From a virus (lineage: Duplodnaviria; Caudoviricetes): a stretch of 64,000 nucleotides of DNA. Both the position numbers and the translations under genes were made by a program. How positions within the stretch are numbered: the stretch's first letter is position 1; every line of letters starts with the position of its first letter. Location: positions 32,001-96,000 of IMG/VR virus record IMGVR_UViG_3300030330_004701; one strand, 5' to 3'. Under the pieces are notes generated by a model. It was given only the letters and a program-made list of their open reading frames with translations. It had not been told where the DNA came from and searched no databases. This document shows positions 3 through 28,923 of the stretch, piece by piece.

Positions 3-833
3 TACGAAAACTCAGAAGATATTGCTGATGTTGAAGTTACCATCGAAAAATTAATTGATGGTGAAAAGCTTATTTACCTGTCTGCAGTAGGTAATGACGG
101 TAAGACAAATGTTGTTTCTGCCTCAGCTAAGCAATGTGATGTTTACTTAGCTATTTATGCAGATACCAACACCTCAACCAGTGGTCAAACACCGGAAAAG
201 GTTGTTAACTGTTCAGGTATGTATGTGAGCTCTATCTCTTATACTTATCCAGTTGATGGTAATGCAACTGAATCTGTCACTCTTGTCGGTAATGATAAGT
301 TCTGGTCAGACAACATAGCTGGAGTTATCGCTGATCCGAAAAGCAGCTACGGTAGTCCTGCAACAGGAACTGACGGAAGTGATGTTCCAGTTTCCGGTAT
401 CATCAGAAGAAATAATGTTGATGTCGCCGGTTCTACACTACCTGCAGAAGTGACAACACAAGGTCCTGCAGATAGTAGACACCTCCAAAATATCAGCATT
501 AGTGCTGACTTTGGTCGTGAAAACATTTTGGAACTTGGTCGCTTTGGACCTTATTACAAATACGCTACATTCCCATTTGAAGTTACTTCAGAATTTGAAG
601 TTATTGCTACAAGTGGTGACTTAGTTAGTGTATCTGGTAATGCAGAGAACTTAACAGACAGAACCATCGTCATCAAAGACCAAGCTGGTACTGTTATTGA
701 TTTAGGAACTAAGAATAAACTTACTTCCGTTTCTTATTCTGGTGGTGACACTGGTGGTGGAAACGCAACTGTTTCATTCTCTTACTCAACATTTAACGAT
801 ATTAAAGTTAATGGTGGAGGAGTTTACTACTAA
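3..833 (+). CDS. Putative major tail tube protein (5' truncated by window edge)
   Basis: Frame is open from position 3 (YENSEDIADVEVTIEK...). Beta-rich, small-residue protein with a tube-like RENILELGRFGPY motif. Lies upstream of chaperone-like genes and the TMP. Confidence 0.6.
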   Translation, partial: YENSEDIADVEVTIEKLIDGEKLIYLSAVGNDGKTNVVSASAKQCDVYLAIYADTNTSTSGQTPEKVVNCSGMYVSSISYTYPVDGNATESVTLVGNDKFWSDNIAGVIADPKSSYGSPATGTDGSDVPVSGIIRRNNVDVAGSTLPAEVTTQGPADSRHLQNISISADFGRENILELGRFGPYYKYATFPFEVTSEFEVIATSGDLVSVSGNAENLTDRTIVIKDQAGTVIDLGTKNKLTSVSYSGGDTGGGNATVSFSYSTFNDIKVNGGGVYY

Positions 834-917
834 TTTTTTGCGCGTTAGTCGATTTAGATATATAATATATTAGGACAGACGGCGAGCGCATTATAGTTTA
901 GGATTTTTTAGGACGGA

Positions 918-1970
918 ATGATGTCGAGTATCGAGATCGAAAAAACTTTATATAGAATTATACAAGGTCGTTTGCGCTACAAGGTGCATGACGACCTTGT
1001 TCTATATATACATGAACCAACACCTGAGTTAATATTTGAATCATATGAGGTATATGATGACGCTTATGATGAGGCTTATAGAAAAGGCGTTTTTGTAAAA
1101 CAGGAAATTATGCCTATACTTTTGGAAAACGACTACTGGTCGCCGCTTGATGATAAAGAAGCAGAACGACTGCAAAAAGAAATAGAAAACAAAAAGCTAG
1201 AGTGCTTCCAGAATTTTGTACATAAAAAACAATTGCTTAAATTAAAACGAGAGTTGGCGCGATTACAAAGTCTATGGGGTAAAGCTACATCTAAGAAGTT
1301 CAGTTTAGATAATATTACATGTTCAGGCACAGCATCATATACAAGATCAGTATTTATGATAGAAAAAACAACCAAATTCGCGGATGGTTCTCCATATGAC
1401 TGGAAAGAAGTATCGGTGTCAACAGCTGCTAGATTTTACAGAGAGAACTCAGTACCCGAAGAAACGCTGAGAGAAATAGCGCGCAGTGAACCTTGGAGGG
1501 GCATGTGGAACGGAGGCAAAGGCACACAGCTTTTCGGTGTTCCATTCTCTAAAATAACAGCGCTGCAATCTCGCCTCTGCTCTTACTCAAGAATGTATGA
1601 TAGCGTTTTTGAACATCCAGAATCCCCAAATGACAAAGTTATAGAAGATGACGACTGTCTAGATGGCTGGTTTATATTCCAGAAAAGAAAGAGGGAGAAG
1701 GAGAAGAAGCAAAGCGAAATAGATGGCATGATTACAAATGAGAAGATCCGCAACGCAGATGAGATCTATGTAGTTGCACAAAATAGAGAAGATGCCTCAG
1801 AAATATATAATATAAATGACCCTACTGCCAGAAACATTATCAGGGAAAGAGATCAGAAAATCACAGGGAAGGAGGGTATAAAGTTTACTGAACTTGATGA
1901 CGTTCAACGTCAATTACAAGTAGAAAAAAACAAGAAGTTTGCAGATACAATGCGTTCAAATAGAACCTAA
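918..1970 (+). CDS. Putative tail assembly chaperone-like protein A
   Basis: 350-aa charged helical protein between tube and TMP genes; N-half aligns by eye with 2342..3316. Confidence 0.45.
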   Translation: MMSSIEIEKTLYRIIQGRLRYKVHDDLVLYIHEPTPELIFESYEVYDDAYDEAYRKGVFVKQEIMPILLENDYWSPLDDKEAERLQKEIENKKLECFQNFVHKKQLLKLKRELARLQSLWGKATSKKFSLDNITCSGTASYTRSVFMIEKTTKFADGSPYDWKEVSVSTAARFYRENSVPEETLREIARSEPWRGMWNGGKGTQLFGVPFSKITALQSRLCSYSRMYDSVFEHPESPNDKVIEDDDCLDGWFIFQKRKREKEKKQSEIDGMITNEKIRNADEIYVVAQNREDASEIYNINDPTARNIIRERDQKITGKEGIKFTELDDVQRQLQVEKNKKFADTMRSNRT

Positions 1971-1986
1971 TTTTAAAGGAAAAAAG

Positions 1987-2352
1987 ATGGATGATTATAA
2001 TAGTTTGTTAAAAACATCTCTTGATCTTAAAAGAAAGAGAGATGAGAAATTTAAGGAGATATCGAAAGATCGTCTTTATCAAATAGCAAAGAAAAAGATT
2101 CAGACGACAATGATCGGAGCTTTAGATAGTATAGAAAAGAATTTTTCATTTTTATGGGAAAGTGACGGAGAGCCATCTCCAGAACAGACCCAGTTAAAAT
2201 CTATATTTGAAGAAGCTCGCGCGGAGATTCTAGATAGAGGAAATACACAAATCAGGAATCTTCAAGCGGAAATGACACATTACGATATTTCTTGGAAGAG
2301 ATACAAGTTAACTTTACCAGTGGTAGATAAAGGAGAAAAAGATGGTGAATAA
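1987..2352 (+). CDS. Hypothetical phage protein
   Basis: ATG at 1987 follows an AAGGA-like RBS; helical; overlaps next gene. Confidence 0.6.
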   Translation: MDDYNSLLKTSLDLKRKRDEKFKEISKDRLYQIAKKKIQTTMIGALDSIEKNFSFLWESDGEPSPEQTQLKSIFEEARAEILDRGNTQIRNLQAEMTHYDISWKRYKLTLPVVDKGEKDGE

Positions 2353-3316
2353 AGACGATGATTTTATCGAAGTTATTAGTGAGGACAAAGAGGGTAATGA
2401 AGTAAAGGTCTTTGTGAAAAAGCCCGGTACTAAAGAGTATAGAGAATCTCAAATTGAGTACAATAGAGCTTTTCGTGCTGCTTTAGAAAGCGGTGCAGTT
2501 CTTAAGAAAAGACTCAATGAGTATATGCGAGAACAAGGCATTTGGGATGATGAGAAAGAAACTCAAGAGCAGAAGCTTCTTAACTTAATGACTGATTCTG
2601 AAGCCGCTCTCAAAAAGGGTGGAATTCCTCTTGCTGAGGCAAAAGAACTGGCTCTTAAACTTAGAGCAACTAGGGCTGAGTTTAGAAGTCTTGTCGCTGA
2701 AAGAACAGTGCTTGATGGCAATACTGTAGAAGGCCAAGCTGATAACGCTAGGTTTAATGCTCTTTGTGTTGAGTGTATCTATAATAAAGATAAGAGAACT
2801 TTATCCTTTTCTAGTATTGAAGAGTATGACAAGCAGGGCGATCAGCCTTGGGCTGTGAAAGCTGCCGGAGAACTTGCCTCTGCTCTTTATCAGTTAGATC
2901 CGAACTATGATAATACATTAACAGAAAATAAGTTTTTGAAGGCTTACAATTTTGCTAATGAAAAGAATAGATTGATCAATGCTGATGGTCATCCAATTTT
3001 TATTGATAAGGAAGACAACAATAAAGAATACTTAATTAATGAAAATGGCAGATTTATTGCCTATCGTACAGACGAAGGCTATAAAAATCAAGATCCTGAA
3101 GATGCTTATCTCGTAAATAAAGAAGGTTTAGAGGTAGACGAAGATGGCGATCTTGTTGATGGATTCTCTCCATTCTTAGATGATTCTGGAAATCCTGTTC
3201 CGGTTCCTAAAAAAGCTGAAGATTCCACAGAAGAAGCTGAGGAAGAAGTAGCTGAAGAAGCGGAAAATGCACCAAAAAAGCGAGGTAGACCAAAAAAGAC
3301 TGAGGAAGTCTCGTAA
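2342..3316 (+). CDS. Putative tail assembly chaperone-like protein B
   Basis: 324 aa, acidic C-tail ending PKKRGRPKK; immediately upstream of the TMP. Confidence 0.45.
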   Translation: MVNKDDDFIEVISEDKEGNEVKVFVKKPGTKEYRESQIEYNRAFRAALESGAVLKKRLNEYMREQGIWDDEKETQEQKLLNLMTDSEAALKKGGIPLAEAKELALKLRATRAEFRSLVAERTVLDGNTVEGQADNARFNALCVECIYNKDKRTLSFSSIEEYDKQGDQPWAVKAAGELASALYQLDPNYDNTLTENKFLKAYNFANEKNRLINADGHPIFIDKEDNNKEYLINENGRFIAYRTDEGYKNQDPEDAYLVNKEGLEVDEDGDLVDGFSPFLDDSGNPVPVPKKAEDSTEEAEEEVAEEAENAPKKRGRPKKTEEVS

Positions 3317-3416: not shown

Positions 3417-6400
3417 ATGGCAAAATTCGTATTAACAGCACAAATGCAGTTGCAAGCGCCTACTAACTTAACGCAGGTACGCAACCAGATACAGCAACAG
3501 CTGAGCAATGTGACAATCAATCCACAGATTAATACGCAATCTTTAGCCAACGCCAATGCACAAATAGCAAATGTTGGCAAAGCTGCTAATAATGCCAGCA
3601 AGTCTTTAGGTAATGCCAGCAGATCTGCACAAAGTTTAGGATCGGCTCTCGGTGCTGCTGCCAGAAGATTTGCCTCGATTACCTTGGCAACAGGATTCTT
3701 CTTGGGTCTTGTTAGAGGTATATCTGATGCTGTCGGCAGGGCGGTCGAGTTTGAAAGAGAAATGCTCAAAATTAGTCAGGTTACTGGCAAGACCTCTGGA
3801 GAGCTCAGAGGCTTAACTAAAGAGGTTACTAGGCTTTCAATAGGCTTGGGCGTTAACTCTGCTGAACTATTGAATACAGCAAGGACTCTTAACCAAGCAG
3901 GTTTCTCTGCGCAGAAAACTAAAGCGGCTTTAGAGATATTGGCTAGAACTGATCTTGCTGCAACCTTTGAAAACCTACAGGCTACAACAGAAGGTGCAAT
4001 CGCTTTATTAAGACAGTTTAGAACTGAAGCAAGGGCTGCGGGTGGTGACATAAAATTCTTGGAGCAATCTTTAGATGCAATTAACGCTGTTTCTAAGAAC
4101 TTCGCTGTTGAAGCGGGAGACTTGATTGCAGTGATTCGTAGAACTGGGGGTGTGTTTGAAGCTGCGGGTGGTAAGTTAAATGAATTGATCGCCCTGTTTA
4201 CTTCTGTTCGTGGTACTACTCGTGAAACGGCGGAAACAATCGCTACTGGTTTTAGAACTATCTTTACTCGTATTCAGAGAACAGAAACTGTAGACCAGCT
4301 TAGAGAGCTAGGTATTGAGTTAAGAAATGCCAAAGGTGAGTTTGTTGGTCCGCTTGAAGCCATTAAGAGGTTGCAGATAGGGCTTGCGGGACTTTCTGCT
4401 ACAGACTTTAGATTTCAAGAAATCATCGAACAGCTTGGTGGTTTTAGACAGGTCGGTAAAGTTATCCCCCTCTTGAAGCAATATGAAACTACTGCTGAGG
4501 CGTTAGCTATTGCAAATAACGCTATGGGCTCAACTGCCGCTGATGCTGCAACAGCACAACAAGGTCTCGGAAATGCATTCCAAAAACTAAAGGAAAAGTT
4601 TGATTCGACGGTTCGTAATATTGCTGACAGTGATACATTCCAGACTTTAGCTAGAGGCGCCATAAAGTTAGCCGAATCTATTTTAAATGTAGTTGAGGCT
4701 TTAGAGCCTTTACTGCCGTTGCTCACATCTCTGGCGGCGTTTAAGCTTGGGCAGATAGCTATTCCGGCTTTTGGTAAGTTTGCCGGTATTGGAGGTAGAA
4801 ATCAAGGCGGTAAAATCTATGGGTTTAACAATGGAGGTTTTGTTCCGGGTACAGGAAATAGAGATACAGTTCCTGCAATGCTTACGCCCGGCGAATTTGT
4901 AATCAGAAAGTCTTCTGTTAAAAAAATTGGTGCTGCAAATTTAGCGGCAGTCAATGGGTACAATGACGGAGGTGAGGTTGATGTCTTTACTATAACTGGT
5001 ATGGAGGGCCGATTACCTGCTATAGGGTATACTCAGGCTACATCAGGAAATCGTGGAAAAACAATGCTAAGCGGACCTGTCAGGGATACTGTAAAAAATA
5101 AATATTCACACATGTTATCTAACACCAGTGAGGGAAAACGTGCTACAATGCCATCGGTGCTTAGACCTGAAGATAAAATAGTACTGAATACTCCGTTTAT
5201 TAATGCTCCAGCTAATAAAAGTTTGGCACAAGCTGGCGATACACAGTTCATAGAAAGACATTTAAAAACTGCGGTTCATGGGATGGCAACAGAGGTTGGA
5301 AATGCATTAGATATGGATGTTCCCCCACTTCTCGCATTTAATGAGTCAGCCGCAGCCAGTTCAGCCATGAAAGGTATAGATTTAAAAACAATCTCCGGGT
5401 ATATGTTTGAATCCATCGCTTCTACTTTATCTGGATCTCCCGTAGGCGGAAGCGGTGAATTTTTTGATATGCAACAGGCTAGAGCTTATACTGAAAAGCT
5501 TGAAAAACTATTTGCTGGTGAAGGCAGATTAGCAGGCATGCTCCAAATGGAACTCAAGAGGACACTTAACACTGAGAATCTCAGAGGCGCTGACGGTTCA
5601 CTTACAACAAAGTTGCTTAACAGTATGACAGGGGCAAACCCATTTGGTTTAAAAATGACTAGAACGGCTGGAACTCCAGATGATCCTATGAGCAGTTCTA
5701 GCCTCTTAGCTGGCATGAAATCAGCAAATGTAACACCCGGCGGAAGAACAAAGTTTTTTGGCGGTAGAATAGGAGCATATAACAAAGGTGGTTCGGTAGA
5801 CACTGTACCTGCAATGTTAACTCCCGGTGAATATGTGATAAATAAAAAAGCCGCCCAGTCTATAGGCTATGGCAATTTAAATAGAATGAACAAAAGCGGT
5901 GTGGCTCACTTCAACAGCGGAGGCGCAGTTCAACACTTTCAATTCGGAGGAGCGCCTACTAGCCCGAATCCTCTCGGCGCAGCTATGAGTGGCGGTGGTG
6001 GCGCTAACCCTATGGCTCAAGTCGATGCCGCAGCCAAAACACTCGCCAACGCCCTAACTTCTCTTGCTACTGCAGTTACTGGTTCGGTAGACGACATGAA
6101 CCTATTAGGGATGATAGATGATAATCTAGCAAAAGCCTCAACGCCTTTATTTAATGCTTTGCATAATGCCGCAGCTGGTATCGGCCCAATGGATGAAAAA
6201 ATAAATGGCATGCTTACTCCAGCAGCTACAACTCTAAGTTCAGAAATGGCAAGAGCAGGACAGGCGCTTTATGCTGGGCTTTCAGTTGTTGATGACCAAC
6301 TAAAGCAGCAGATGCAGGTTGCTGTTGAAGCTATAGTTGCTGCTTCTACAAATTTCGCTGGAGGCATCAGCACGTTAGATGATACATTGAGAACTCAGCT

Positions 6401-9400
6401 CCAATCAGCTCTCAATCCTTTAAAGCCTGTGATGACGGCACTTCAAGCAGAAATGAAGAAGGTTGGGACCGAGTTAATGAAGAAGATTGCCGTATTTGAT
6501 CAACTTAAAGATGATGTAGCAACACTGCAAGGAGAGATGCAAAAACTTGGTCAAGGATTTATTGAAAAATTAGACGACTTCAATCCAATAAAAGTTCAGG
6601 TTCCTGCAGTTGCAACTTCTCTGCAGTTCCTAAGCGAAAGTATAATTCTTTTTGTTCAAACAGTTGCTGGACTCCAAACCAATCTTGCCGGTGCAGTTGG
6701 CACAGCAGTGAACTCCTTTGCAGCAATGGGGTCAGGGGGAGCTAATCCATTCGCTGCCCTTAGTGGTCCTCTCGCAAAAACTAATAAGTTTGTACTCAAA
6801 ATCAATCAAGTCATGATGGGTGTTGGTGAACAGCTTTACCAGCTAGCATCAAATCTAGCAAATCTTAATAAAAGTGTAAGCAAGGGAAGTATAAGTATAA
6901 CTAATGTCGGTGGCGCTGCTTCAAACACTGGTCCGGTGATTGATGGTTTGGAGCAACAGATTATAAAACTGAAGGCTGAATTGGCCGAAGTTCAAAATCA
7001 AATGAATACGATGGGGAATCAGGCTGTAACCACTAAGGGTCCAGTTGGAAAAGGTGGCGGTGGCGGTGGCGGTGCAATGGCTGGCCTTGGCAATGCTGCA
7101 ATGATGGCTACATTCATGGCACCTATGCTATTAGAATTTACAAATCTAAGTGATGCAACAAAAGAGGCTGCAAGTAATGCGTTGATGCTAGCTGGCGTAT
7201 TAGGAATGCTCATAGTTCCTATGGGTAGATGGTTAGATAGTGTTGTGGCGGGTACTGCCGCTAACGTCAAAGAGACTATATCTTCTAATGTTAGTGCCGC
7301 ATCGGATATGGCTGAAGCGGGTGCTTCTGGAGTTAGTACTGGAGCAGACTTAGCAGAAGCTGGAGGCAGCGCTATTGCTACCGCAGCAGATACAGTTGAG
7401 GCTGGTTCATCTATAATGGCAGGCTTAGCAGCGATGGGCATGGCAATAGCTGCGGCGCCATTTACTATACTCGCAGTTGCTCTTACTGCGCTGATAGGTG
7501 TTGTTGCATATTTTCAAAGCTCATTAAAAAAGACAGCAGAAACAGCGGTTAAAGCATCAAACGAAATGTTGGATGCAGCTAGAGAAGGAGAAGGTAATGT
7601 TGATCGCGCTGAACTGGACAAGCAGGGTCGAATAGCTGTAAATGCTACCGCAAAAGGGGAGTCAGTAGGTTTTGGGAACCTTGCTAGTATTACGAGCGGT
7701 TTTAAAGGGTACTCCGGCGCATTTAAAAGATTGTCTGAGGGAACTTCTAAAGCGACTGATGCTCTTGTTCTTATTCCAGTTATAGGGCCATACATTGTTG
7801 GTTTGAGCGACGCAATGGATGAGCAAGCACAAGCAATGAGGTCAGGCCAAAAAGCTATGAAGCTTTTGAATGATGCTAGAGTAATAGAAGCTGAGTCCAC
7901 TGGTGCTCGCATCAGAGCAATGAAAAAAATAGAAGAGGCTGACCTTCAAGGGGCAGAAAGGAGAAAAGCTGTAACCAAAGCTAATGCTGATTTTACAAAG
8001 TCAACGAATGATTTAGCAGCTGCTAATGCTGCGCAGCTAGCTTATCTTGATAGTGATGTAGTTGCTAAGGGAATAATGAGTGCAGAGGAACTACAGGAAG
8101 CTCAGGATGACCTTAGTTCTAAAATAAAAGATAGGGCAAAGCAGCAACAAGAAATTACTGCAGAGGAGAGGGCTGCCTTGGATGAAATGATCAGCGAGAT
8201 GAGAGAGGGCGGTCAGTCATTCGCTGAAATATTTGGTAGTGAAGAATACAAAAAGCAATTACAAAAGATTGGTGACTCTGCGGCTGCAGCTGCTAAAATG
8301 GAGGCTCAGGCTAGTGGAGCTTCGAGGAAAGCCGGCCTAGAAGCAATAAACATGACCGAAGAGGAGTTCGATCAGCTACGAGGAGCAGAGAGGGAATTGG
8401 CTGTGGCGAGGATGCATGCGGCGCAACAGGCTTATGAAGCTAATGCGGCTGAGGAAGCCAGACAGAATGCTATGGAAGGAACAGATAAGAAACAGAGAGA
8501 ACTAGCTGAAGCGGAAATGAAAAGGATAGCAGAATTAGAAGCTCTTAGAGCCGCTGAAGTAGAGGTCATGAGGGCAGAGATTAAACGTAGAGAAGTATTG
8601 AATAGGTTGCAGTCAGCTCAAATATCATACATGAATACTGTTGATGGTATGATTGGGTCTATACAGGGGCTTTCTGGGGCGATACAAGATACTACAAATA
8701 ATTCTATCAAACTGGCGGAAACATTGCAGGATGGATTTACACCAGCAGCCTTTGCTGCCGCGTCCGATATTAGTCCAGTAATTGCAAATAATATTAAAGA
8801 AGGATTAGAAAAGAACAAAGAGCTCAGAGAAGGCTTCATGTCAATAACTCAAGCAAGCGGTGGCCAAAAACTTTCTATGAAGCAGAGAGAGGAAGCTCTT
8901 GCTGGTATAGGCATAGATCTTGACACTAGTGGCATATCTAAGGACATGCGGGACAAAGTAATGATCATGCTTGAAGACGGAATACAGCCAGACGAAATTG
9001 AAGAACTGGTTGGTATTTTTGGCGCGGAAGTCGGGACACAGATTGATTTATTAAAGCAAGTAAATGAGGCACAACAAAAACATATATCACTTATTCGAGA
9101 AGCGGGCAAGTTAGAGCTTGAAGCTAGAAAGAAAATTAGATCGGCAGTACTATTTGAAGTTGATGTAAGACAGAAGGGTGCTGATAGAATAAGAGAAGCG
9201 ACAGGTAAAGAAATAACAATAGCCGAAGCTCGGATGAATATGTTTGAAAAAGTCAATGCCATGACTATGGGTCAGGGCGGTCTAGGCGTTCAACAGTTAG
9301 GCAACAGGGCCTCAACTCTTTTAGACGAGAGAAATAAAATACAGGGCCGAAGAGACGCTAGAGGTAAAGAAGATGCCATAGATCAAAAAATGGCAAATGA

Positions 9401-11906
9401 TCAAAAGTTTCTTAATCAGCAGATAAACAATACAAAAGAGGCACTTAAACAATTAGCTGACCAAAGCGAGTTAGCCTCTGCTGTAATGAGTGAAATTCAA
9501 AAAGAGCAGAGCAAAAGAGCTGCGGTTCAAGAATCAATCAAGAGCTTTACCTTTGCTACTAATGAAGAGCGCATGAACATGACTCAGGAGTTTGCTGCGC
9601 TAACAAGAGTACTGCAAACCGGAAATCTTAATTCTATTCCAGACCAAATGCGTGGCGCTGTTGGTAAACTGTTAGATCAGTTCAAAGATATTGAATTTAT
9701 GCCCGGCATGACTGGTGGAGATATTTCTAAACGCTTGCAAGTACAACAGATGGATCAGCAGTTCCGAATGATGTCTGGCGGAAGACAAGGTGTGCCTCCT
9801 CAATTAGTCAAGGCTATATTTGAATCTACTACTCAAGAAGAGAAGTTAATAAATGATCTTAGAGCTATAAATGAAGAAGAACAAGCTGCTGCAGCGCAAT
9901 TAAGAAAACTTGAACAACAAGAAGCTCAGACTATGATTGAAGCTGCAACAAAGCAAATCCAAGTCAGTGAAGCACTGCTCAAGTGGCTTCAGGCGCGGAT
10001 AGAAAACGAGTCTAATGACATAGCAGAAGGCAACGCTAATGGTGGTTTAGTTTATCGTGCTGGTGGAGGCACTATATTCAAACCTAGAGGTACTGATACA
10101 GTCCCAGCTATGTTAACTCCGGGTGAGTTTGTAATTAGAAAAAGTGCCGTTGACAAGATTGGCGTTGGCGCTTTGACTGCTCTTAATAATGGCAATGCAA
10201 ATACTGTATATAAGGCTGACGGGGGATTGGTTGCTGATGGCAATAGTGTAGCGATGGGTATTGCTAGAAATATGGGAGTTGCTCATATAGCTAAAAATTT
10301 CAATGCAGATCCTGCACAAATTAGAAGGGTTTGGAAAGCTAGCGATCTTGGTGGCTTGATAGGATTGACCGGCGGAGAAAGATCTCCGTTTAGATATATT
10401 CAAGCTTACTTGAATACTCTCAGGCAATATGAGTTTTTATTCAAAAAATTAGATCCTACCGGCATTCAACTAAAGAATGACCCAGCCAGTATAAATGGTG
10501 CACAACAATTAGTGAAAGCATTGCGGGGCGTAACACAAAAGCATGGTTTTCCGGCAAATTTTCTGAATGATCCAGCTTCACAATCTTTCAGACTTGGCCA
10601 GCTAATGCTACACGAAGCAATAAGAAACCCTCAAGCTGCAGCTGAAGGCGTGATTGGACCACAGGGACAAGCAGCTATGCCAGCAGATCGACGAGATTTG
10701 ACTCCTGCGCAAGTAGCTGCCAACAAAAAAGCCTCAGTGCAGGAAAGAAAGAACCGAAGAAAAAATTCCACAACAGTTCCATATCCTATTTTCAAAAATG
10801 GTGTTTTGGTAGGCCATGATAACAATAAGCCTAGAATCAGCTATGCGAAATTTTTGCAACTCAAAGAGAAGAATAAAAAGTCTAGCGCAGCGATAGCTGC
10901 GGGACAAGAGGCGTTAGGTAATCTTGCAGCTTTTCAGGCCGAACAAGAAGAAATACAGGCTGATAAAATTCTTCAGCGTAAAGGTCTTTTTGCCATAACA
11001 AGTCAATATCAGAACAGAACTTTCGGCTTTGAAGCGAATTGGTCGCCAGAATCTCTTGCTCGCTGGGATTTGATGAAAAGCAGAAGAATAAGACTTCAAG
11101 GTGCGGGAACTCAGGCTTTAGGTTTTGTCCCAGAAGACAAACAACGTAAAGATTTCAACGCGCAGGGTACTTTTAAAGATATAGTTAGAGAGTTGGTACT
11201 ACCTCCAAATGCGGGTAATGATTATTTAACTAAAACTGAAGAAGCAATACTTGCTAAGGTTAGACCAACAGAGCTCGAAAACATAAACAAGCGTACACGC
11301 GCAGAAGCCTCCAAGAGAATGCTAATGTTTGAGAAGATAATGGGATTGTATAATCTTAGTTTCTTTGGGCAGCCTGTACCGGGTTATACTGGTGCTGTTG
11401 ATAATAATGGATTCTTGATTCCTGCTCAAGCCCAAGGATTTGCTAGAGGCGGTTCAGTTGACTCTGTTCCTGCTATGTTAACACCGGGCGAGTTTGTAAT
11501 GAGTCGATCTGCTGTTAAGAAACACGGCACTGGATTTATGAATGCAGTTAATAGGGGTAAAGTTCCCGGATTTGCTAAAGGTGGATCTGTTGGAGGAGTG
11601 CAATATAAACAGAATGGCGGTATATTATCTAGTATGGGCTCAGGTTTGATGGAAGGTATTTCAAATGCTTTATCATCATTTGACGGCATTGCAAACATGT
11701 TAAGTAATGTAGCTAGTATGTTTTCAGATATGTCAATATCGCACACAGTACAAGTTGATGGAACCTTAAATATTCCCGGATTTTCTCAGCAGGAAATTAA
11801 TCAAATTATTCAAGTTATTGGCAACTCGGTTGTCTCACAAACTGCAACTAAGATTGATACCGCTTTAGAGCAATTCAAAAACGAACTAAACCAGCGATCA
11901 GACTAA
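3417..11906 (+). CDS. Tail tape measure protein with internal repeats and cargo domains
   Basis: 2829 aa. TP901-type TMP N-terminal core (FEREMLKISQVTG...ETAETIATGFRTIFTRIQ), long Ala/Glu/Gln coiled coils, hydrophobic segments near 7080-7510, and four D(T/S)VPAMLTPGE motifs. Confidence 0.92.
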   Translation: MAKFVLTAQMQLQAPTNLTQVRNQIQQQLSNVTINPQINTQSLANANAQIANVGKAANNASKSLGNASRSAQSLGSALGAAARRFASITLATGFFLGLVRGISDAVGRAVEFEREMLKISQVTGKTSGELRGLTKEVTRLSIGLGVNSAELLNTARTLNQAGFSAQKTKAALEILARTDLAATFENLQATTEGAIALLRQFRTEARAAGGDIKFLEQSLDAINAVSKNFAVEAGDLIAVIRRTGGVFEAAGGKLNELIALFTSVRGTTRETAETIATGFRTIFTRIQRTETVDQLRELGIELRNAKGEFVGPLEAIKRLQIGLAGLSATDFRFQEIIEQLGGFRQVGKVIPLLKQYETTAEALAIANNAMGSTAADAATAQQGLGNAFQKLKEKFDSTVRNIADSDTFQTLARGAIKLAESILNVVEALEPLLPLLTSLAAFKLGQIAIPAFGKFAGIGGRNQGGKIYGFNNGGFVPGTGNRDTVPAMLTPGEFVIRKSSVKKIGAANLAAVNGYNDGGEVDVFTITGMEGRLPAIGYTQATSGNRGKTMLSGPVRDTVKNKYSHMLSNTSEGKRATMPSVLRPEDKIVLNTPFINAPANKSLAQAGDTQFIERHLKTAVHGMATEVGNALDMDVPPLLAFNESAAASSAMKGIDLKTISGYMFESIASTLSGSPVGGSGEFFDMQQARAYTEKLEKLFAGEGRLAGMLQMELKRTLNTENLRGADGSLTTKLLNSMTGANPFGLKMTRTAGTPDDPMSSSSLLAGMKSANVTPGGRTKFFGGRIGAYNKGGSVDTVPAMLTPGEYVINKKAAQSIGYGNLNRMNKSGVAHFNSGGAVQHFQFGGAPTSPNPLGAAMSGGGGANPMAQVDAAAKTLANALTSLATAVTGSVDDMNLLGMIDDNLAKASTPLFNALHNAAAGIGPMDEKINGMLTPAATTLSSEMARAGQALYAGLSVVDDQLKQQMQVAVEAIVAASTNFAGGISTLDDTLRTQLQSALNPLKPVMTALQAEMKKVGTELMKKIAVFDQLKDDVATLQGEMQKLGQGFIEKLDDFNPIKVQVPAVATSLQFLSESIILFVQTVAGLQTNLAGAVGTAVNSFAAMGSGGANPFAALSGPLAKTNKFVLKINQVMMGVGEQLYQLASNLANLNKSVSKGSISITNVGGAASNTGPVIDGLEQQIIKLKAELAEVQNQMNTMGNQAVTTKGPVGKGGGGGGGAMAGLGNAAMMATFMAPMLLEFTNLSDATKEAASNALMLAGVLGMLIVPMGRWLDSVVAGTAANVKETISSNVSAASDMAEAGASGVSTGADLAEAGGSAIATAADTVEAGSSIMAGLAAMGMAIAAAPFTILAVALTALIGVVAYFQSSLKKTAETAVKASNEMLDAAREGEGNVDRAELDKQGRIAVNATAKGESVGFGNLASITSGFKGYSGAFKRLSEGTSKATDALVLIPVIGPYIVGLSDAMDEQAQAMRSGQKAMKLLNDARVIEAESTGARIRAMKKIEEADLQGAERRKAVTKANADFTKSTNDLAAANAAQLAYLDSDVVAKGIMSAEELQEAQDDLSSKIKDRAKQQQEITAEERAALDEMISEMREGGQSFAEIFGSEEYKKQLQKIGDSAAAAAKMEAQASGASRKAGLEAINMTEEEFDQLRGAERELAVARMHAAQQAYEANAAEEARQNAMEGTDKKQRELAEAEMKRIAELEALRAAEVEVMRAEIKRREVLNRLQSAQISYMNTVDGMIGSIQGLSGAIQDTTNNSIKLAETLQDGFTPAAFAAASDISPVIANNIKEGLEKNKELREGFMSITQASGGQKLSMKQREEALAGIGIDLDTSGISKDMRDKVMIMLEDGIQPDEIEELVGIFGAEVGTQIDLLKQVNEAQQKHISLIREAGKLELEARKKIRSAVLFEVDVRQKGADRIREATGKEITIAEARMNMFEKVNAMTMGQGGLGVQQLGNRASTLLDERNKIQGRRDARGKEDAIDQKMANDQKFLNQQINNTKEALKQLADQSELASAVMSEIQKEQSKRAAVQESIKSFTFATNEERMNMTQEFAALTRVLQTGNLNSIPDQMRGAVGKLLDQFKDIEFMPGMTGGDISKRLQVQQMDQQFRMMSGGRQGVPPQLVKAIFESTTQEEKLINDLRAINEEEQAAAAQLRKLEQQEAQTMIEAATKQIQVSEALLKWLQARIENESNDIAEGNANGGLVYRAGGGTIFKPRGTDTVPAMLTPGEFVIRKSAVDKIGVGALTALNNGNANTVYKADGGLVADGNSVAMGIARNMGVAHIAKNFNADPAQIRRVWKASDLGGLIGLTGGERSPFRYIQAYLNTLRQYEFLFKKLDPTGIQLKNDPASINGAQQLVKALRGVTQKHGFPANFLNDPASQSFRLGQLMLHEAIRNPQAAAEGVIGPQGQAAMPADRRDLTPAQVAANKKASVQERKNRRKNSTTVPYPIFKNGVLVGHDNNKPRISYAKFLQLKEKNKKSSAAIAAGQEALGNLAAFQAEQEEIQADKILQRKGLFAITSQYQNRTFGFEANWSPESLARWDLMKSRRIRLQGAGTQALGFVPEDKQRKDFNAQGTFKDIVRELVLPPNAGNDYLTKTEEAILAKVRPTELENINKRTRAEASKRMLMFEKIMGLYNLSFFGQPVPGYTGAVDNNGFLIPAQAQGFARGGSVDSVPAMLTPGEFVMSRSAVKKHGTGFMNAVNRGKVPGFAKGGSVGGVQYKQNGGILSSMGSGLMEGISNALSSFDGIANMLSNVASMFSDMSISHTVQVDGTLNIPGFSQQEINQIIQVIGNSVVSQTATKIDTALEQFKNELNQRSD
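4863..11498 (+). repeat. Four dispersed D[T/S]VPAMLTPGE[F/Y]V protein repeats in the TMP, starting at 4863, 5799, 10095 and 11460
   Basis: Read directly in the translation. Each is preceded by [F/Y]xxGG and followed by KxA/SxxxxG...N...[F/Y]xxGG. Codons differ between copies. Confidence 0.95.
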
Positions 11907-11915
11907 GGTATAACA

Positions 11916-14900
11916 ATGGTAAGAAAAAACGGCAGTAAAAACCTATTTATAAAACAGGGCGACAATAGCAACCTTGACTTGTTCATGCAATCGCCTGAAT
12001 TTATAAAAGATTTTACTAACTGGGAGACTAAGAACTCTTCTCTTGAGGTTACTCGATCTAGAGCGTTTGAAAAAACTCCATTTGATAATAATGCTGAAGA
12101 GATGACACCTTATACAAATATTGAGATAGGGAACAATGTCGCGCTTTGTGCTGATGAAAATTATAGCACCAGTAGATTTGGCAATCCAATTTTTCCAAGT
12201 AATAGAAGCAATCCTAATCAAAAGGGGTATTACCTCAAAACTACTATAATGGGATTCCCTGATAATGACCATTATACAAATGACGTTAAACTTTCAAAGG
12301 TAGAGGAAAGTGCGATAGTTATAAAAATTGATACTATTGCCGGCGCATCAGAGCTTCATTTTGATACTTGTAGGACCCCGCAGAATAAAAGAAAACTAGC
12401 TTACTGTATACCTCGACTTTATGATTCTGCAGGCAGCGTTCTCTTTGATGGCGTATCTAATCCAGCCGTAGGCATTATCGGTAACCAAGCACTTAATAGA
12501 TTTCAAGATGTGTGGGCTCAAAACTTAGATATTGGAGAAGTGGCCAGAAGGTATACTGGTATTGGTGGTGATACTACGATAACCGTTCTACCTTATAGTC
12601 AACCTAGATACAATAAAAATGCAAAATTTAATTATTACAGTTGCGCTGAGGATCAAGTTTTGCATGGTATCGGCGGAATCAGCGCTCCTAACAACGAAGT
12701 TGCCTCTGCAGCTGAGGGTCTTATATATAAAGACGACGACGATGGTTTTGTATATTTTCTTGATCTCAACAGGCTTGGACCGGATATCAATATTGTTAAT
12801 AAAGACCTTGCGTATTTCGCTATTCCGGGGACCTCTTCCAATGAGTCCAGACCTCTTAGTCCAGAAGCAAGATCTCACATAGGAAAGGATGGTATTGAAG
12901 TAGCGGCCTTTGAGTTCCAGAGAGAAGGCAGTTATGAGATTAAGGGTCTTGGCTTAATAAAAGATCCTGAGTATAAGGTACAATTTTTTGAATGTGAGCC
13001 TAATTTTGTGCTATTTGATGTCACGAGAGCTGAGGGTTGTGGAAGAGTAGATATTTTCAAGAGAAGATCAGGCACACTAACTGTAAATGCTTCTACTAAC
13101 AAGGTTTCTTTTAGATCTAATTCTGGTGTCGTTTTATCTTCAACCCCTCAAGTTGGGGACGTAATTAAAATTGTCAGCGGCTTGAACGAGTCAACAGGTT
13201 CTTCAAATATCAATCCTGTAAATGGTGTTTTCTATCTTGGGGCAGACTTTAAACTTTATGCTAATGCCGACTTTAGTGAAGAGGTTAATCTTCGTGATAT
13301 CAGAGGAACTGCCAAATGGACGCTCATGGATTCTGCAAATTCTGAAGACCCAACTTCAAGATGGCAGTATCATAAAAGTATTATAGGGTCAAACACGCCT
13401 TCGCAACATGAAGTAACCACAGCTGCCTCTTTTGACTCAAGCCTAGATGTACAAACCGTGCAAAGTTTTAACCAAATTAAAAACAAAATGGGACTTGGCA
13501 CCGGCAATGACGAACTGACAATCCGTGATAAAAATTTTAACTTGGGTAAGGCTATTGCTATAAGAAAGTCTGATGACGCAATTGCTATATCTCAACCTGC
13601 GAACCACTTTAATAGCCTTTCTGAGGCTCAGCTGGGCCTGAATCTTTACGGCAACACGACAGCTGGGTTATATTATTTTCTTGACATGCCGCTATTTTTT
13701 ATAGAGAAAGACCACAAATTAAATAACCGCTCTTATGATCGAGGTTTCAAATCGGGGAACCAAAATACAATTCAGAGGCGGCGTGATACCGATACAAACG
13801 CTTACGGTTTTACTGGCAACGTTAGGGAGCCAAGCGCTGTGGAGGCTAAGTTGTATTTTGATGGTTATAATGAAAACACGCAAACTTTTAGTAACTTTGA
13901 CTTTAAACCCATCAGTATAACTAATCAATTTACGGACCTTTGCGAGGAAGATAAGAAAGTATCTGATACAGCTCCTGATGATCCTACCGGAGTTACATAC
14001 GGAGAAGATGGTGATTTTAGCACTCCGATGAGTGAGCCAGTTGTTTCTACAGATGGTGACAATGTAGATTTTTATAATTACGGTGATCCAAATGCTGGGA
14101 CTTCGGGTGGAGATATTTATGGTTCAGAAGGGTCAGAAATGTTTAGCGATCCTGATGGAGCATTTTCTGGTTTTGCCCCCCTCGTAGAAGCAGTTCCACC
14201 TAATAATGACCACACAACAAACGCGAGAAGTGTTTTCAAATTTGAACTTAATAACATGAATTATGGTTGTGTATTTTTTGGGTATGTAGATGACGATCTA
14301 GTTTCAATAGATGCATCTAGTGGCAACACTCTTATTGCGCCCCCCTCACCAGTAGGAGTCGGTGGTGCTCCAGCAAACGATTTTTTGAGTTCTCAAGAGG
14401 CTACGCCTATTGACCAATTGCACTGGAGAAAAGCTTGGGCTCTAGGTAAAAGGCAGCTTGATACTGTTACTTTTGGAAGCGATGACTCAAGTTATTATAC
14501 TGTAGATATTGACGGAGACAATATAGCTGAAACAAATGATGTCTCTAAGTCTCCGATATATTTTGAAATAACAGCTGGCAGAAATGGTAAGTATAATTAT
14601 AACGCTTATGATATGAGAAAATTTAGAAATGATACCGTTGACAGTAATTTGTGGTTTCAGCATCCAGAATGTATAGGGGGATATAGGGCTCCATATACAG
14701 CGTATTGGGGCAAATTCGACAAATGCACTGATGGTTTTGGTCAGGCTGTTGCGTTTGGTGACAATGGTGAGATATTTATTGCAGACTCAACATCACACTA
14801 TTCTGGGCCATGTTCAGTTTTGGGTGATATGCTCATGTATGAATACAGTTACTCTGAACCTAGAAGAGACACTCAACCTCAGTATCCATATTATAACGAC

Positions 14901-17900
14901 GGAGACGACCTTGCTGAAGGCGAGCGGATTTCAACTAGAAAACAACCAAATAAGCCTCTTCAGGACTTTGCAGATTCTCACAGTAGAAGTATGAAAGACG
15001 TGCTTGCTACAGAAGAATACAACTACAGATCTGTATATTCAGTTCACATAAAAATAATAAGAGATCAAGATGAGCTCTTGAGTGGAGATTTGAATAACAA
15101 ATACGCAACCGCTCAAACAGCTCTTTTTTGCAGTAGCCAAACATTACCATATTCAGCAGGAGACCTTACGAGAAAAAATTACTTGGTAAATACCTCCCTA
15201 AAAGCAATTAATGGTGGAGGGGCTGGCTACGCACTGAAGGGAACACGAGTACCTGACACTGAGCAATTAGAATATGTTTACCTGAGCCGTAGATACGGCC
15301 TTCCGCCTGACTTTCCGTTTTATAGACTTTCTCCTTATTCTCCTAATGTGATAGTACATTATGATAGTGGGAAACTTTATGTTAGTAATGTTTCTGGTTT
15401 TGTTGATGAAAATGAATCGACAGCGAGCCGGAGCGAGTTTAGGGTTGATGGTCTTGGTCAATTTAGAAATTATACGCATGGCATAAAAGTATTTGATTTT
15501 TCTGAAGGCAAAACAGATTACTGGCTAGCAGGGTGTGCAGTTTCTACAGAACTCTTCATTAATAATAGTGGGACGGACTTTACTGATAGTAATGAAAACG
15601 CTGTACTATATGATGCTGAAGCAGGTGCCGGTACTTCCGACAGTACCTTCAATACGGCACTCATACAAGACCCAAGGCTTATGATTTGGCCGGGAGCGGA
15701 TGTTGCCAACCTATCTGTGGGTCATCTATGCCACACAGCCTTGGCCGGCAGGGATTTTTCTGGCTTGACTGGCAAGACAGATGTTTTCTTTAGTACTTTG
15801 TTTAGTTCCAACATAAACATGAGGCTTTTCTCAGGAAAGTTCAAAGTTAGCCCATTTACTATGAGCTTTGCTAATGGTGAATTTTGGCCAGTCCCCGCAG
15901 CAGGGTTACCTTCTAGTATTTCTTACGCTAATGGCTTGAACACTTGGACATACATCATGATTGTAAAACCAAACCAGCCGATTGGTCCGTCAGACGTAGG
16001 TAATCTTGTTGTGCCGGTCAGTGATGATGAAGTAGAAGTAAGTGGTTTTAGTCGTCTCCGAAAAAATAAATACCTAATAGGCAAGCGCAAGGGACTTTTT
16101 TCATCAAATCCAGAAAAGAATTTCAGATATTGTAATGTTTCTTCTCCATACTATATTACAGATCCATGGTGCACAGAGGAAGAACAACAAGCTCAAACTC
16201 TACTTGACAAAGTAGTGCCGAACCAAGTTCCAGTTGGCCAAAACAGAGACTTTAGAGTCGATAGAGGGACTCTAGTATTTTTACAGGAAAATACTACAGA
16301 CGAATTTGGTCTTATTATACCTGAATCTAGACAGTTAGTAATATATGATGTATCAACTAATAATCCAAAATTGATACAAAAAACAACAGCAACTTTGCCT
16401 TCCGATATTGGTAGGGGGGTTAGAGCTAATATCTCGCTTGATGATTCTACCACCAGTACAGATGTTATAGCCGATTTTATTAGCGTCGATATTTGTAACG
16501 GTAAAATCTTCACTTCAATTATGAACAGTTTCAGAAACAACACTCTTACCTCTAGTGCTAATCTGGATTATGGACATTTCACAGACAACGGTTGGCCAGA
16601 GGCAGGTGGTTTCGGAAACCTCACCAATCCCGCATTTGCTATCTTCACAGATACAGGTAGAAGCCGACTTCCTAGATCAGAAACCTTGACTGAATTTTCA
16701 GAACCCGCTTTTCCATTTTTAACTTTTGCCGAAAATTTTTCAGATGTTAACCCTTATAACCTAAATAACATTTATGAATACATCCGTAATGAAGGAACTT
16801 TCATAAATTCTCAAATATTCGATATTAACAATTCACATAGAAACCCACTAGCATTTTACAGTATGAGGAACTTTTCCAAAGACGGGCAAGCAATGGTAGT
16901 GCCTATAGGTATTACTGTAACTGTAGATGTTGACACAAACTTTACTAGCCCCAATGAAAATGTTGTGTTGCCAAAAGTAGCTTTTTATGATTCAGATCCA
17001 AGATTAAACATACGGCAGATTGGGGAAGTAAGTGATGGCAAACTATTATTTGGCGAGGATACACAAATCCCATCAAGGCACAGCAGTCTTTATACACACG
17101 GAGCACAGAATGCAAGAAATATGAGTGTGCTGACTCCCACCTACAGGTTTACTGGTGGTAGATACAAAGGAACCATTGATATTGATTTCAATCAAGATAA
17201 TAGTATTAGTCTTTTTGAATATAAAGAATTATCTGCGGAAGACAATAGAACATTTAGATTCAATGATGGCAACGGAAATTGTTTTCTAAATGAGTTAGAT
17301 GCTTATGGCAGAAGAAAGCCAGCAAGTTATACATTTGAATTTGATGATGCTAACAAAGAAAGCTTTAATAGAGGGTTTTTAAGGGGCAACAATTGTATTG
17401 GTTTAGGGCTTTTATCTTGGGAGACGAATGGGGATGATGACGATGCTTACCGTAAAAAAAGCACTAGCCAGCAAAACAGATACTCGCCTTACACTAAATA
17501 TAAAGTAAATGATGAAGAACCACATTCATTCGTAAATACTGCAAAAATTTCAGTTGTCGTTAAATATAAGGAATACGACACAGGCTTGATAAGAAGATTT
17601 TCTTGTGCTGGTGATGTGCATATTTTTAATGACCCCAATGTGAATTATGATGGTTCACCTTTCCCTCTGCCTGTGGACCTGCTAGTCTCAGACATAACCC
17701 CGTATCTTCAGGGCGATCCTGAATCAAGTAGTAAATTAAGCAATCGTGTTCGTGTACCAAATGTACCGTATACAATAAGGACTTCAAAAAGCGATGCTCA
17801 GCCTTATTTGAATCAATCCTCGGCTGTGCTTGCTGGGACCGAAACACATAGTATACAAGTTGTCGCTCCACAGCTGGCATTTGATAACCCTAATCCAGAC

Positions 17901-20900
17901 TTTTTGTCTTTGGCGATTAGAAATATTCCTACAGAGAATAACAATGCAGACCTTTCTACTACGGGCCATATAAACTCAAGTGGAAATATGGATTTAAGGA
18001 TTTCTGGTATTGTAACAGAACAAGGCGCGATGACTATACATTTAGGTGAAGTTCTGAAAAATGCGGCTATGGATATAAACATGCCAAATGTTATTGGTTT
18101 TGAGTGTGACGGTGTAGCACTTTCACTCTTACCTCCTACCGGAACACAAGTAGAAAAAACAACGTCTTTGGTATTTCCCGGCGGAACTGGAGTAAGTGAC
18201 GGACTGTCATTATCAGTTAATCCAACATACACTAGCGGAGCTTTTGATTTCTATGTTCAGGGTGGTTTAGCGAGTGGGAATATGGACATCGCAATGTCTG
18301 GTGTTCATGGAATTATCAATACTATGCCATGCGTGGAAGGAGATCTGTTCTTACAGGGTATGACTGGCCCTAGCAGCGGAATCATGCCATTGCATATCAA
18401 TAGATTTTCACATAGTGGCGATATGACTTTAGTGATTGACTCGGCCAACTCTTCTGGCATTATGCCTTTGGCTATTGGGGCAGAGCCAATGAGCGCTTCC
18501 GGTGTATTATTTACTGAAGGATATGAAGACGTTAATCGAGCTACGACATTATATATTGGTAGACAGTTTGAAGAAAAGCAAGCAGACCTATCAATATCTG
18601 GTCCAATCCCATTTGAGGGAGACCCAATAACCTTGCACGCTTCCGGTGCTGCAGTTAATTCGGTTGATACTAACGACTTCAACTTTGATTACATGTGCCA
18701 TCTAACTAGAACAGAAGACAGGTTTGATTTTAGTCAAAATTCTGAGTTGGTCATACCTGAAACAAAATCTAACTCAATTTCTAGGAACACACACCTGCCC
18801 GGAAGCTCCGCTAGGTATGGATATTATTCACCTCTTAGCCCCGGAAAGAGACTGAATAACTTTACGCAATCTTCAGCAAAGATTTTTTATGATCAAGAAC
18901 TATCTAGAGAAGCTATTGCTTCAAATAGAGACCTCCTTGTAGTGGGCTCAAATCCTTCTGCTTTATCAAGCGAGACACAATCTCTACAAATTTTTGAGTA
19001 TATTGACGAAGACAGTCTGCAGCTTAAGTTTACATATGATCATTTCTTTAGAGACCTTGTGCGACTGTCTGGTATATCTGGAGGAGATGGACAAATATCT
19101 ATTCGCCACAAGTCCATTGATGTCTCTGACGATAATAGAATTGCTGTTTCTGTAAGGATTAGTAACAAAAGTGGACTACGAGACGCTGTTTGCGTGCTGC
19201 AGCCGGGAAAATTTGTGCTAAAAAGAATTGGTCAGCCTACATATGATTTGTGTGCTATAGAGCCATCATACAGCACTCCAGTGTCTATTGAAGAAGTCGA
19301 TGGCTGGGTAATGACTCAAGCAATAGTTGGTGATACAATTGATGACTCATCCGACTTAGTTAAGTGCAATAACTATATCGGAAATACTGTGCAATGGAAA
19401 GATAAAGATCTTTATTATGATAAGCAGAGTAAAAACTATGGTTCGGTTTATTATATACAGTATTCGGACAACTATGCAACAGAAAACTTAGCATTTTCTT
19501 TCGGCTCTACTGACGATGGGCAAGTATATTATTCAAACAGATACAATATACCTGAAGGAACAAAAGTAGGGTTTGGTTCTAGGTTTAAGATTCATGGTGA
19601 TTATGCTGTCGTGTCTGCACCCTTGCTTGACTCTTTTATTGCTAATAATGATCTTTCGGTTATGCATGCGCCTTCACCAGAAGGAGCAGTATATGTTTAT
19701 AGATTTGACTCTGGCTGGAATTTTGTAGATGCAATATATTCTGGAGGGTATACTTCTTCTGACATCTCTGGAATTTCTGATTGTACATATAACCATGCTC
19801 TGTTTGGATATAGTGTTGATGTGAATAAGGATAGTGGATTTGTCGCTGTATCTGAACCTGTAACAAACAAAATATACAAATATGTGATACATGCAAATGA
19901 CACTGTTTCATTAGTAAGAGATTATACCGATTCTACTTCTGCTGGTTTTGGAAACAAGATTAACATATGTGCAAACAGTATATTGACCAGTAATGCAGAA
20001 GCAATTAAAGAGCCAGTCTTCGGTCATGACTTCCAATTTACTCCAGAAGAATCTGTGGCTGAAACAAACCAGTACAATCCATTCACTTCTGTTACTAAGT
20101 CGGTGTCAAGCACCTTTACTTTTGTGCTAGACATCGAGCCAAAGGGAGCAAAAAGGCTTTTAGTTGGTAGATCCTTCAATGTTAATTTTGCTGCAGAGCC
20201 TACCATCAATATAGAAAAGCTTTCTATTCTAAATAGAGGCAATTATGGTAATCTATTCATACAGGGTCCGATTACCTCCAACTCTAATAAAGACATAATT
20301 TATTATAGACCTTTGGATGTAGAGACAAACACTATGGGTCTGCAGTTTGCTTCAATTGGTGTAAACTCTGGAATTCCTCTTCATGTTCACGTACCAGATC
20401 CAGCTAGTGGAGTTATACCGCTTCACTTGAGGCAAGCAGAAAGAGCCGACACCACCCTGTTTATTTCACATGTGTTTACTCCTGCTAGTGGTGTAACTAG
20501 TCTTTCAACACTTGGCCCTCTTACATCAGCTTCCAGTGGAGATTTGTTCTCTCACGGTGCAGCGGCAGAGAACAACAATATTGAGACATTTATACTTGGG
20601 GGTCGAACTGGAGATGGAGGAATGGCGCAAGCAGCATTCAATATGCGAGTAGCCCAAGCCGACCCAATCGCATCTTCTGGAGATTTTGATTTATCTTTGC
20701 ATGGCGTTGTAAACACTGCAAGCGGTCATTTCGCAGCGAACACAGCTTTTGTCGAGGGTGGTCTATACGCTCCAGCAGAGGGCATTATCGACTTCCTGCA
20801 TATCCAAACTGACCTCAAGGCTTCGGTGACTGGCGTTGCTGATTTAGCTATAGCTGTTGATCCTGCTGCCGGACCTTCCGATGGAACGTTTCCAGTTTCG

Positions 20901-21212: not shown

Positions 21213-21223
21213 GGAGTTTATAA

Positions 21224-22699: not shown

Positions 22700-22700
22700 T

Positions 22701-28441: not shown

Positions 28442-28453
28442 AAGGACAACTCA

Positions 28454-28843
28454 ATGAAAAAATGTGAAGTTTGCGGGCTTGATTACCAATCTATTGCATG
28501 CCCTCGTTGTATGCTGGAAGAGTCTAAAAAACAGTATTTCAAAGAAAATCCTGAAAAGCAAGAAAAACCACAGTCAATGCCTAGCCTTTTGGCTCAAGCA
28601 AAAAACTTTGCTAAATCTGCAATAAGACATGTTTCAAATGGGATGCAAAATGCTCCTCAGCACGTGGTAGATTCTAGACTTGAGATATGCGGTTCTTGTC
28701 AACACTTGAATGAAGATAGATGTTCTAAATGTGGTTGTTTTGTGGCGATGAAGGCTTCTTGGGCTGCAGAGGAGTGCCCAATACAGAAATGGGGTCAATA
28801 TATAGCAACCAAAGGAAAATGTGGAGGATGCGGTAGAAAATAA
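28454..28843 (+). CDS. Small Cys-rich metal-binding protein (DUF6171-like)
   Basis: RLEICGSC...RCSKCGCFV..KASW...CPIQKW pattern; 12 Cys in 129 aa. Confidence 0.6.
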   Translation: MKKCEVCGLDYQSIACPRCMLEESKKQYFKENPEKQEKPQSMPSLLAQAKNFAKSAIRHVSNGMQNAPQHVVDSRLEICGSCQHLNEDRCSKCGCFVAMKASWAAEECPIQKWGQYIATKGKCGGCGRK

Positions 28844-28873
28844 CTTAAAATTATGTTTATAACTGGCATTTTT

Positions 28874-28888
28874 GTGTATTATAATACA
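28874..28888 (+). promoter_or_regulatory. Putative late promoter containing the perfect palindrome TGTATTATAATACA
   Basis: GTGTATTATAAT upstream of an AAGGAG RBS and the ATG at 28924; 14-bp palindrome at 28875-28888. Confidence 0.45.
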
Positions 28889-28923
28889 TAGGTGCTTTTA
28901 GATACAATAAAGGAGACTTTAAA

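Follow-up and report, generated by a model that had tools for sequence, protein, structure and literature searches.

We show here that the giant tape measure protein (TMP) of an uncultured phage contains a conserved domain, at amino acids ~610-750, that is absent from the known protein families searched, holds a fixed place in related TMPs and keeps a small set of charged residues almost unchanged among distant homologues. By sequence comparison the domain is a new, previously unnamed family, and its carriers are a clade of giant TMPs of uncultured aquatic phages. The best-fitting hypothesis for the invariant residues, as yet unproven and with a probability that we put at roughly 35%, is a divergent PD-(D/E)xK-type site acting on DNA.

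TMPs have long been viewed as rulers and channel formers carrying at most cell-wall hydrolases. The RNA polymerase fusion of phage P23-45 indicates that they can carry cytoplasm-acting enzymes, and a nuclease-type domain fixed head-proximally in many giant TMPs would, if true, extend this idea to DNA cutting or DNA-end handling. The domain would also define a new protein family for the annotation of marine and aquatic phage genomes.

Layout of the tape measure protein

The window, by which we mean the whole 64,000-nucleotide stretch of DNA that was analysed, is part of a 144,965-bp IMG/VR virus record (~94% complete) of an uncultured phage. The TMP gene and the recognisable parts of its product are the following.

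3417..11906, plus strand: TMP gene (P0001), 2,829 aa, a single open frame with matches to PF10145 and tape-measure PHROGs
3822..4442, plus strand: PhageMin_Tail (PF10145) core of the N-terminal TMP region, aa 136-342 (Pfam)
4803..4976, plus strand: flanking motif module 1, GG...DTVPAMLTPGEFVIRK..., core aa 485-495 (motif scan, PHROG search)
4977..5243, plus strand: basic, poorly conserved linker, aa 521-609 (alignments of homologues)
5244..5666, plus strand: conserved domain without a family name, aa ~610-750 (homologues, alignments, HMM)
5739..5921, plus strand: flanking motif module 2, core VPAMLTPGEYV, aa 797-807 (motif scan)
6600..7817, plus strand: central region with four hydrophobic, membrane-span-like segments (Kyte-Doolittle window scan)
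10101..10133, plus strand: motif copy 3, aa 2229-2239 (motif scan)
11466..11498, plus strand: motif copy 4, aa 2684-2694 (motif scan)

The protein has the properties of a tape measure of the PhageMin_Tail type, namely a Pfam match to PF10145 (E 3.7e-21), matches to several tape-measure PHROGs, hydrophobic segments (aa 1062-1080, 1251-1273, 1333-1370 and 1446-1467) and a motif like that of lambda gpH; its full-length homologues measure 1,900-3,900 aa. The motif, VPAMLTPGE[FY]V, occurs in four copies (aa 485, 797, 2229 and 2684) that form two pairs, each enclosing an insert. The second insert, between copies 3 and 4 (10150-11460, aa ~2245-2680), gave no Pfam or PHROG match. Nor did any of the nine tail-block open reading frames that neighbour the TMP gene (219-3316 and 11916-29853), among them one of 3,098 aa (11916-21212) and one of 1,234 aa (22701-26405).

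A sequence-only reading of the window had pointed to a non-coiled-coil segment of ~260 aa between the first two DTVPAMLTPGE motifs, with a nuclease-like set of residues in SGYMFE (E665, 5409-5411), FFD (D684, 5466-5468) and MELKRT (E712 and K714, 5550-5558). All four residues were found at these nucleotides and between these motifs. The limits of the segment needed adjustment: its location holds, its start at 4975 lies one base out of frame (residue 520 begins at 4974), and only aa ~610-750 constitute the conserved domain, aa 520-609 belonging to the poorly conserved basic linker. Within that linker, the first ~50 residues of the slot (aa 522-569, 4980-5123), upstream of the domain, resemble a repeated unit of an otherwise unrelated 2,163-aa protein (P0013), in which 7-8 tandem units with a period of ~119 aa match this stretch.

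Conservation and inheritance of the domain

We gathered 48 homologous copies of the domain, with a median identity of 27% to that of the window. Across them, the four residues singled out by the sequence-only reading passed the conservation check that it had proposed, being the most conserved polar positions, and they belong to four short motifs.

5397..5411, plus strand: G661-x-x-F664-E665, invariant Gly and Glu in a predicted helix (G 48/48, F 44/48, E 48/48)
5463..5471, plus strand: F683-D684-M685, invariant Asp flanked by hydrophobics (D 48/48; position 683 F/W/L/I in 48/48)
5550..5561, plus strand: E712-L-K714-R715, a (D/E)xK(R) motif (acidic 46/48, K 47/48, R/K 40/48)
5598..5612, plus strand: S728-x-x-x-K732, a helix start with a near-invariant Lys (S 37/48, K 46/48)

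A 30-row alignment of homologues shows no variation at G661, E665, D684, F699, K714 or K732, and only E or D at position 712. The PD-(D/E)xK residue order of Glu, Asp and (D/E)xK is thus kept among the homologues, with its placement on helix and strands being predicted. The stretch from Asp to (D/E)xK varies from ~20 to 28 residues across relatives while the motifs themselves are fixed. Judged by this pattern, E665, D684, the acidic position 712 and K714 are under functional constraint, whatever the function may be.

Within a single sequence the motif is not beyond chance, because shuffling the 266-aa segment yields a loose E..D..[DE]xK pattern in 46% of cases and the strict GxxhE..hDh..[DE]xK signature in 0.6%; the conservation of the motif residues, unlike the single-sequence motif, is beyond chance in the alignments. 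The frequency of the loose pattern, together with the fact that no independent method recognises a nuclease, would suit the view that the resemblance is fortuitous and that the domain serves a non-catalytic function such as ligand or membrane binding. We consider this highly improbable in view of the invariance of exactly these residues across sequences ~27% identical. Moreover, the core of the window's domain offers 18 acidic residues and 8 lysines, so that a lucky pick of the conserved ones is improbable, and the blind choice of precisely these residues is, as far as the alignments can tell, a real predictive success for the nuclease template.

The relatives recovered are all of one kind. 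Eight giant TMPs were found at 42-100% identity, and 19 cluster representatives were matched among 1.84 billion proteins, all of which align over aa ~620-750 except P0013, which matches the linker only. An IMG/VR scan with the N-terminal TMP region gathered 61 related TMP loci, and a curated core HMM places the domain in 41 of them, with no match in lambda gpH, the nuclease control sets or the SLT control set. Searches of 50,697 GenBank phages (tblastn with aa 520-785 and with aa 1-519) found nothing, no confirmed relative emerged when JGI metagenome contigs and GTDB genomes were scanned for domain patterns, and word-indexed profile searches added only two further proteins. When the flanking motif was included, an iterated HMM drifted at round 4 and we dropped it. 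We also considered that slots missed by the first HMM might house another nuclease family; Pfam searches of 20 such slots returned nothing, and most of the missed slots hold divergent copies of the same domain.

The N-terminal ~460 aa of the TMP are homologous across all full-length carriers, and every such carrier shows this region and motif 1, then the domain, then directly motif 2; in P0014 and L234 the domain lies further in, at ~1180-1310. A few relatives have a second, degenerate copy (aa 818-960 in P0018, aa 577-712 in P0014), and that of P0018 has lost both the acidic residue and the Lys of (D/E)xK. Among the homologues recovered, the domain occurs only in giant TMPs of uncultured phages and was not seen outside this TMP clade. 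Because it keeps the same slot in relatives and is not found elsewhere, the domain looks, from these comparisons, like a vertically inherited, built-in module and not like something shuffled or acquired. The sequence-only reading, which took the segment for a nuclease cargo, is therefore upheld in part: the conservation of its residues lends support to the nuclease interpretation, and the word "cargo" is misleading.

Separately, a mini-module of the form FGKELQxxIKSGQL...LSIISKSxRV was seen in or after the same slot of several related TMPs (for example L226, L231, L237, L244, L259, L265, P0011 and P0026) and is absent from that of the window.

Family, fold and candidate active site

The domain found no match, even at E <= 10, in Pfam, PHROGs, NCBIfam, PADLOC or PDB sequences, and a Mrr_cat model gave none at the same threshold in the phage's own 145-kb genome. 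Profiles were compared locally with hhalign against family alignments built from genome hits (Mrr_cat, UPF0102/YraN, NERD, VRR_NUC, PDDEXK_1 and SLT). For the domain, P was 0.011-0.033 with Mrr_cat and 0.32-0.72 with YraN, NERD, VRR_NUC and PDDEXK_1, whereas controls within the true family reached 4e-5 (Mrr-YraN), 2e-6 (YraN-NERD), 9e-4 (Mrr-NERD) and 1.6e-3 (YraN-VRR). The Mrr_cat signal is at noise level, since the unrelated pair SLT-Mrr attains P 0.007 by chance. In the most diverse profile the alignment to Mrr_cat pairs FE with FE, FDF with GiD and DAK with QcK, each of them in register, at a non-significant P of 0.011 and a probability of 3.9%. The method brought only 4 of 10 true PD-(D/E)xK pairs below P 0.002, missing NERD-VRR, Mrr-VRR and all four PDDEXK_1 pairs, so this profile comparison is of limited power and lends no support to nuclease membership. 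Taken together, Pfam, NCBIfam, PADLOC, PDB and hhalign detected no sequence or profile kinship to a curated PD-(D/E)xK family. In the literature searched, likewise, we came across no account of a PD-(D/E)xK domain within a TMP.

AlphaFold2 returned helices only, with a pLDDT of 46 from a 10-row alignment and, from the 30-row alignment, a pLDDT of 55, a pTM of 0.39 and no strands; the (D/E)xK stretch lies at pLDDT 34-44. At this quality the models are too poor either to accept or to reject a restriction-endonuclease fold, with its alpha-beta-beta-beta-alpha-beta core and clustered catalytic residues. Foldseek with the low-confidence model gave a best E of 4.3 against the PDB and no nuclease, the ESM Atlas offered as look-alikes only TMP (PhageMin_Tail) or unnamed clusters, all below threshold with scores < 0.9, and Chou-Fasman-type propensities computed along the alignment were not informative.

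One rival explanation is structural, namely that the domain is a mostly helical structural or assembly module of the ruler without enzymatic activity, whose invariant charges would serve as salt bridges or as contacts in the TMP oligomer, with the tube lumen, with assembly chaperones or with the processor of the lambda-like motifs. The helices of both AlphaFold2 models, the PhageMin_Tail/TMP clusters among the language-model neighbours and the negative outcome of every nuclease profile test agree with it, as does the fixed slot inside TMPs and nowhere else, which is what one would expect of a built-in part; TMPs are moreover known to lie extended in the tube lumen (PMC13033339; PMC10770324). 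Low model confidence leaves the helices with little weight, however, and the invariance falls on Glu, Asp, Asp/Glu, Lys and Lys, not on heptad hydrophobics. Furthermore, the domain is made of short elements and Gly/Pro-rich loops with indels, unlike ruler helices, and its degenerate copy in P0018 has decayed in the manner of inactivated enzyme duplicates. We therefore regard a purely structural role as a serious though somewhat unlikely explanation. Should it be correct, the domain would still be a conserved, unnamed building block of TMPs with unusual invariant charged residues.

The sequence context suggests a different picture from that of a ruler helix. Short hydrophobic elements alternate with indel-prone loops rich in Gly, Pro and Ser, the Asp is flanked by hydrophobics (F/W-D-F/Y), and (D/E)xK is preceded by hydrophobics and followed by a Ser/Thr-rich loop. 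These surroundings match strands and loops better than they match a coiled coil. Such loop-separated short elements, combined with invariant Glu, Asp, Asp/Glu, Lys and Lys, argue for a compact functional site. Among the catalytic signatures considered, PD-(D/E)xK is the only one that fits the residue order, those of HNH, GIY-YIG, PIN, Toprim, nucleotidyltransferase, HEPN, PLD and ADP-ribosyltransferase enzymes having been set aside because they do not fit the conserved residues.

An enzyme of another kind with a Glu/Asp pair, for instance a new hydrolase of the cell wall or of surface glycans working in the periplasm during penetration, has also been weighed. The invariant Glu in a predicted helix, with the invariant Asp ~19 residues further on in what is probably a hairpin, is reminiscent of lysozyme-like sites such as those of the hen and chitosanase-type folds, and the acidic character of the window's domain is not that of a DNA-binding protein. 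TMPs with peptidoglycan hydrolase domains are, in addition, well documented (cited in PMC12617516). Against this stand the lack of any Pfam match to hydrolase families, the hhalign comparison with SLT (P 0.39-0.75), which revealed no SLT or muramidase profile similarity, and the invariant (D/E)xK and second Lys, which would be left without a role in a lysozyme-type site. The position is also at odds with it, the domain being head-proximal whereas known TMP hydrolases lie toward the tip-proximal C-terminus, which leaves first (T5 pb2C, PMC12617516). An enzyme of another kind thus appears distinctly improbable.

Several observations speak against the nuclease reading itself. It has neither fold nor profile support; in one divergent branch DAK comes after Pro-Thr (IPTDAK), an atypical sequence for strand three of this fold; where a hairpin would normally join the Asp strand to the (D/E)xK strand, a helix is predicted; and the copies show no consistent DNA-binding charge, since their pI spans 4.5 to 10 and that of the window's copy is an acidic 5.2.

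Under the PD-(D/E)xK reading, aa ~610-750 would fold into a compact domain in which G-x-x-F-E, F-D, (D/E)-x-K and the downstream Lys most likely make up a metal-binding active site of the acid/base type, with a very divergent PD-(D/E)xK (restriction-endonuclease-like) site as the best-fitting known template. The first helix would then hold Glu665 and a short strand Asp684; the following strand would carry Glu712-x-Lys714, and a variable helix or loop would separate these two strands. TMPs contact the leading DNA end (PMC13033339; PMC12617516), and the domain, placed in the head-proximal quarter of the protein, would adjoin the resting place of that end in siphophage tails. It would then exit the tail together with the TMP, before the DNA, and subsequently act on DNA, either by cutting that of the host or of competitors or by holding or processing the phage DNA end. 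A DNA-directed role is biologically plausible because of this head-proximal position near the leading DNA end and because the TMP of P23-45 carries an RNA polymerase; by the same analogy, delivery of the domain into the cell is plausible. In the most far-reaching version, which we think unlikely, the whole clade of giant TMPs would carry an active, very divergent PD-(D/E)xK nuclease beside the leading DNA end, the tail would inject it ahead of the genome, and it would be set free at joints formed by the lambda-like flanking motifs.

Comparison with known systems

With PD-(D/E)xK nucleases, and Mrr_cat (PF04471) in particular, the domain shares a helix Glu (G-x-x-F-E as against x-x-F-E), a hydrophobic-flanked Asp and (D/E/Q)-x-K-(R), in the same order and at roughly similar spacing. 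It differs from them in having no significant profile similarity, Pfam match or predicted beta sheet, in the 20-28 residues between Asp and (D/E)xK, which include an inserted helix or loop, and in being embedded in a ruler and never stand-alone.

TMPs that carry peptidoglycan hydrolases, of the mycobacteriophage and T5 types, likewise have an enzyme-like module within the ruler that is expected to exit the tail with it; here, by contrast, similarity to SLT or other hydrolases is missing, and the module lies head-proximally and bears a different catalytic signature.

The classical processed TMPs lambda gpH and T5 pb2 share with the window's protein the central hydrophobic segments. Lambda gpH (L298) also has, at aa 732-781, a single copy of the flanking GG...PAxLTPGEFV-type motif (E 1.8e-8), compared with four here, and it lacks any match to the domain and is not known to be enzymatically active. 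Its Gly-rich region is where the ~14 kDa gpHC fragment is cut off, at a site that has not been pinned down exactly (PMC12617516). Since the lambda motif lies in this cleavage region, cutting of the window's TMP at its four motifs is, by analogy, conceivable.

A parallel in design is gp96 of Thermus phage P23-45, a TMP fused in its N-terminal part to a virion RNA polymerase that was found motif-first (PMC10770324). Both are giant TMPs with an N-terminal module recognisable only by a short conserved catalytic signature, and the gp96 module, too, is proposed to act on DNA as the TMP exits the tail (PMC10770324). They differ in that the RNA polymerase of gp96, a two-barrel enzyme, has been shown to be active and solved by crystallography (PMC10770324) and lies at the extreme N-terminus, whereas the domain described here is of ~140 aa, bears a putative nuclease-like signature and follows the PhageMin_Tail region.
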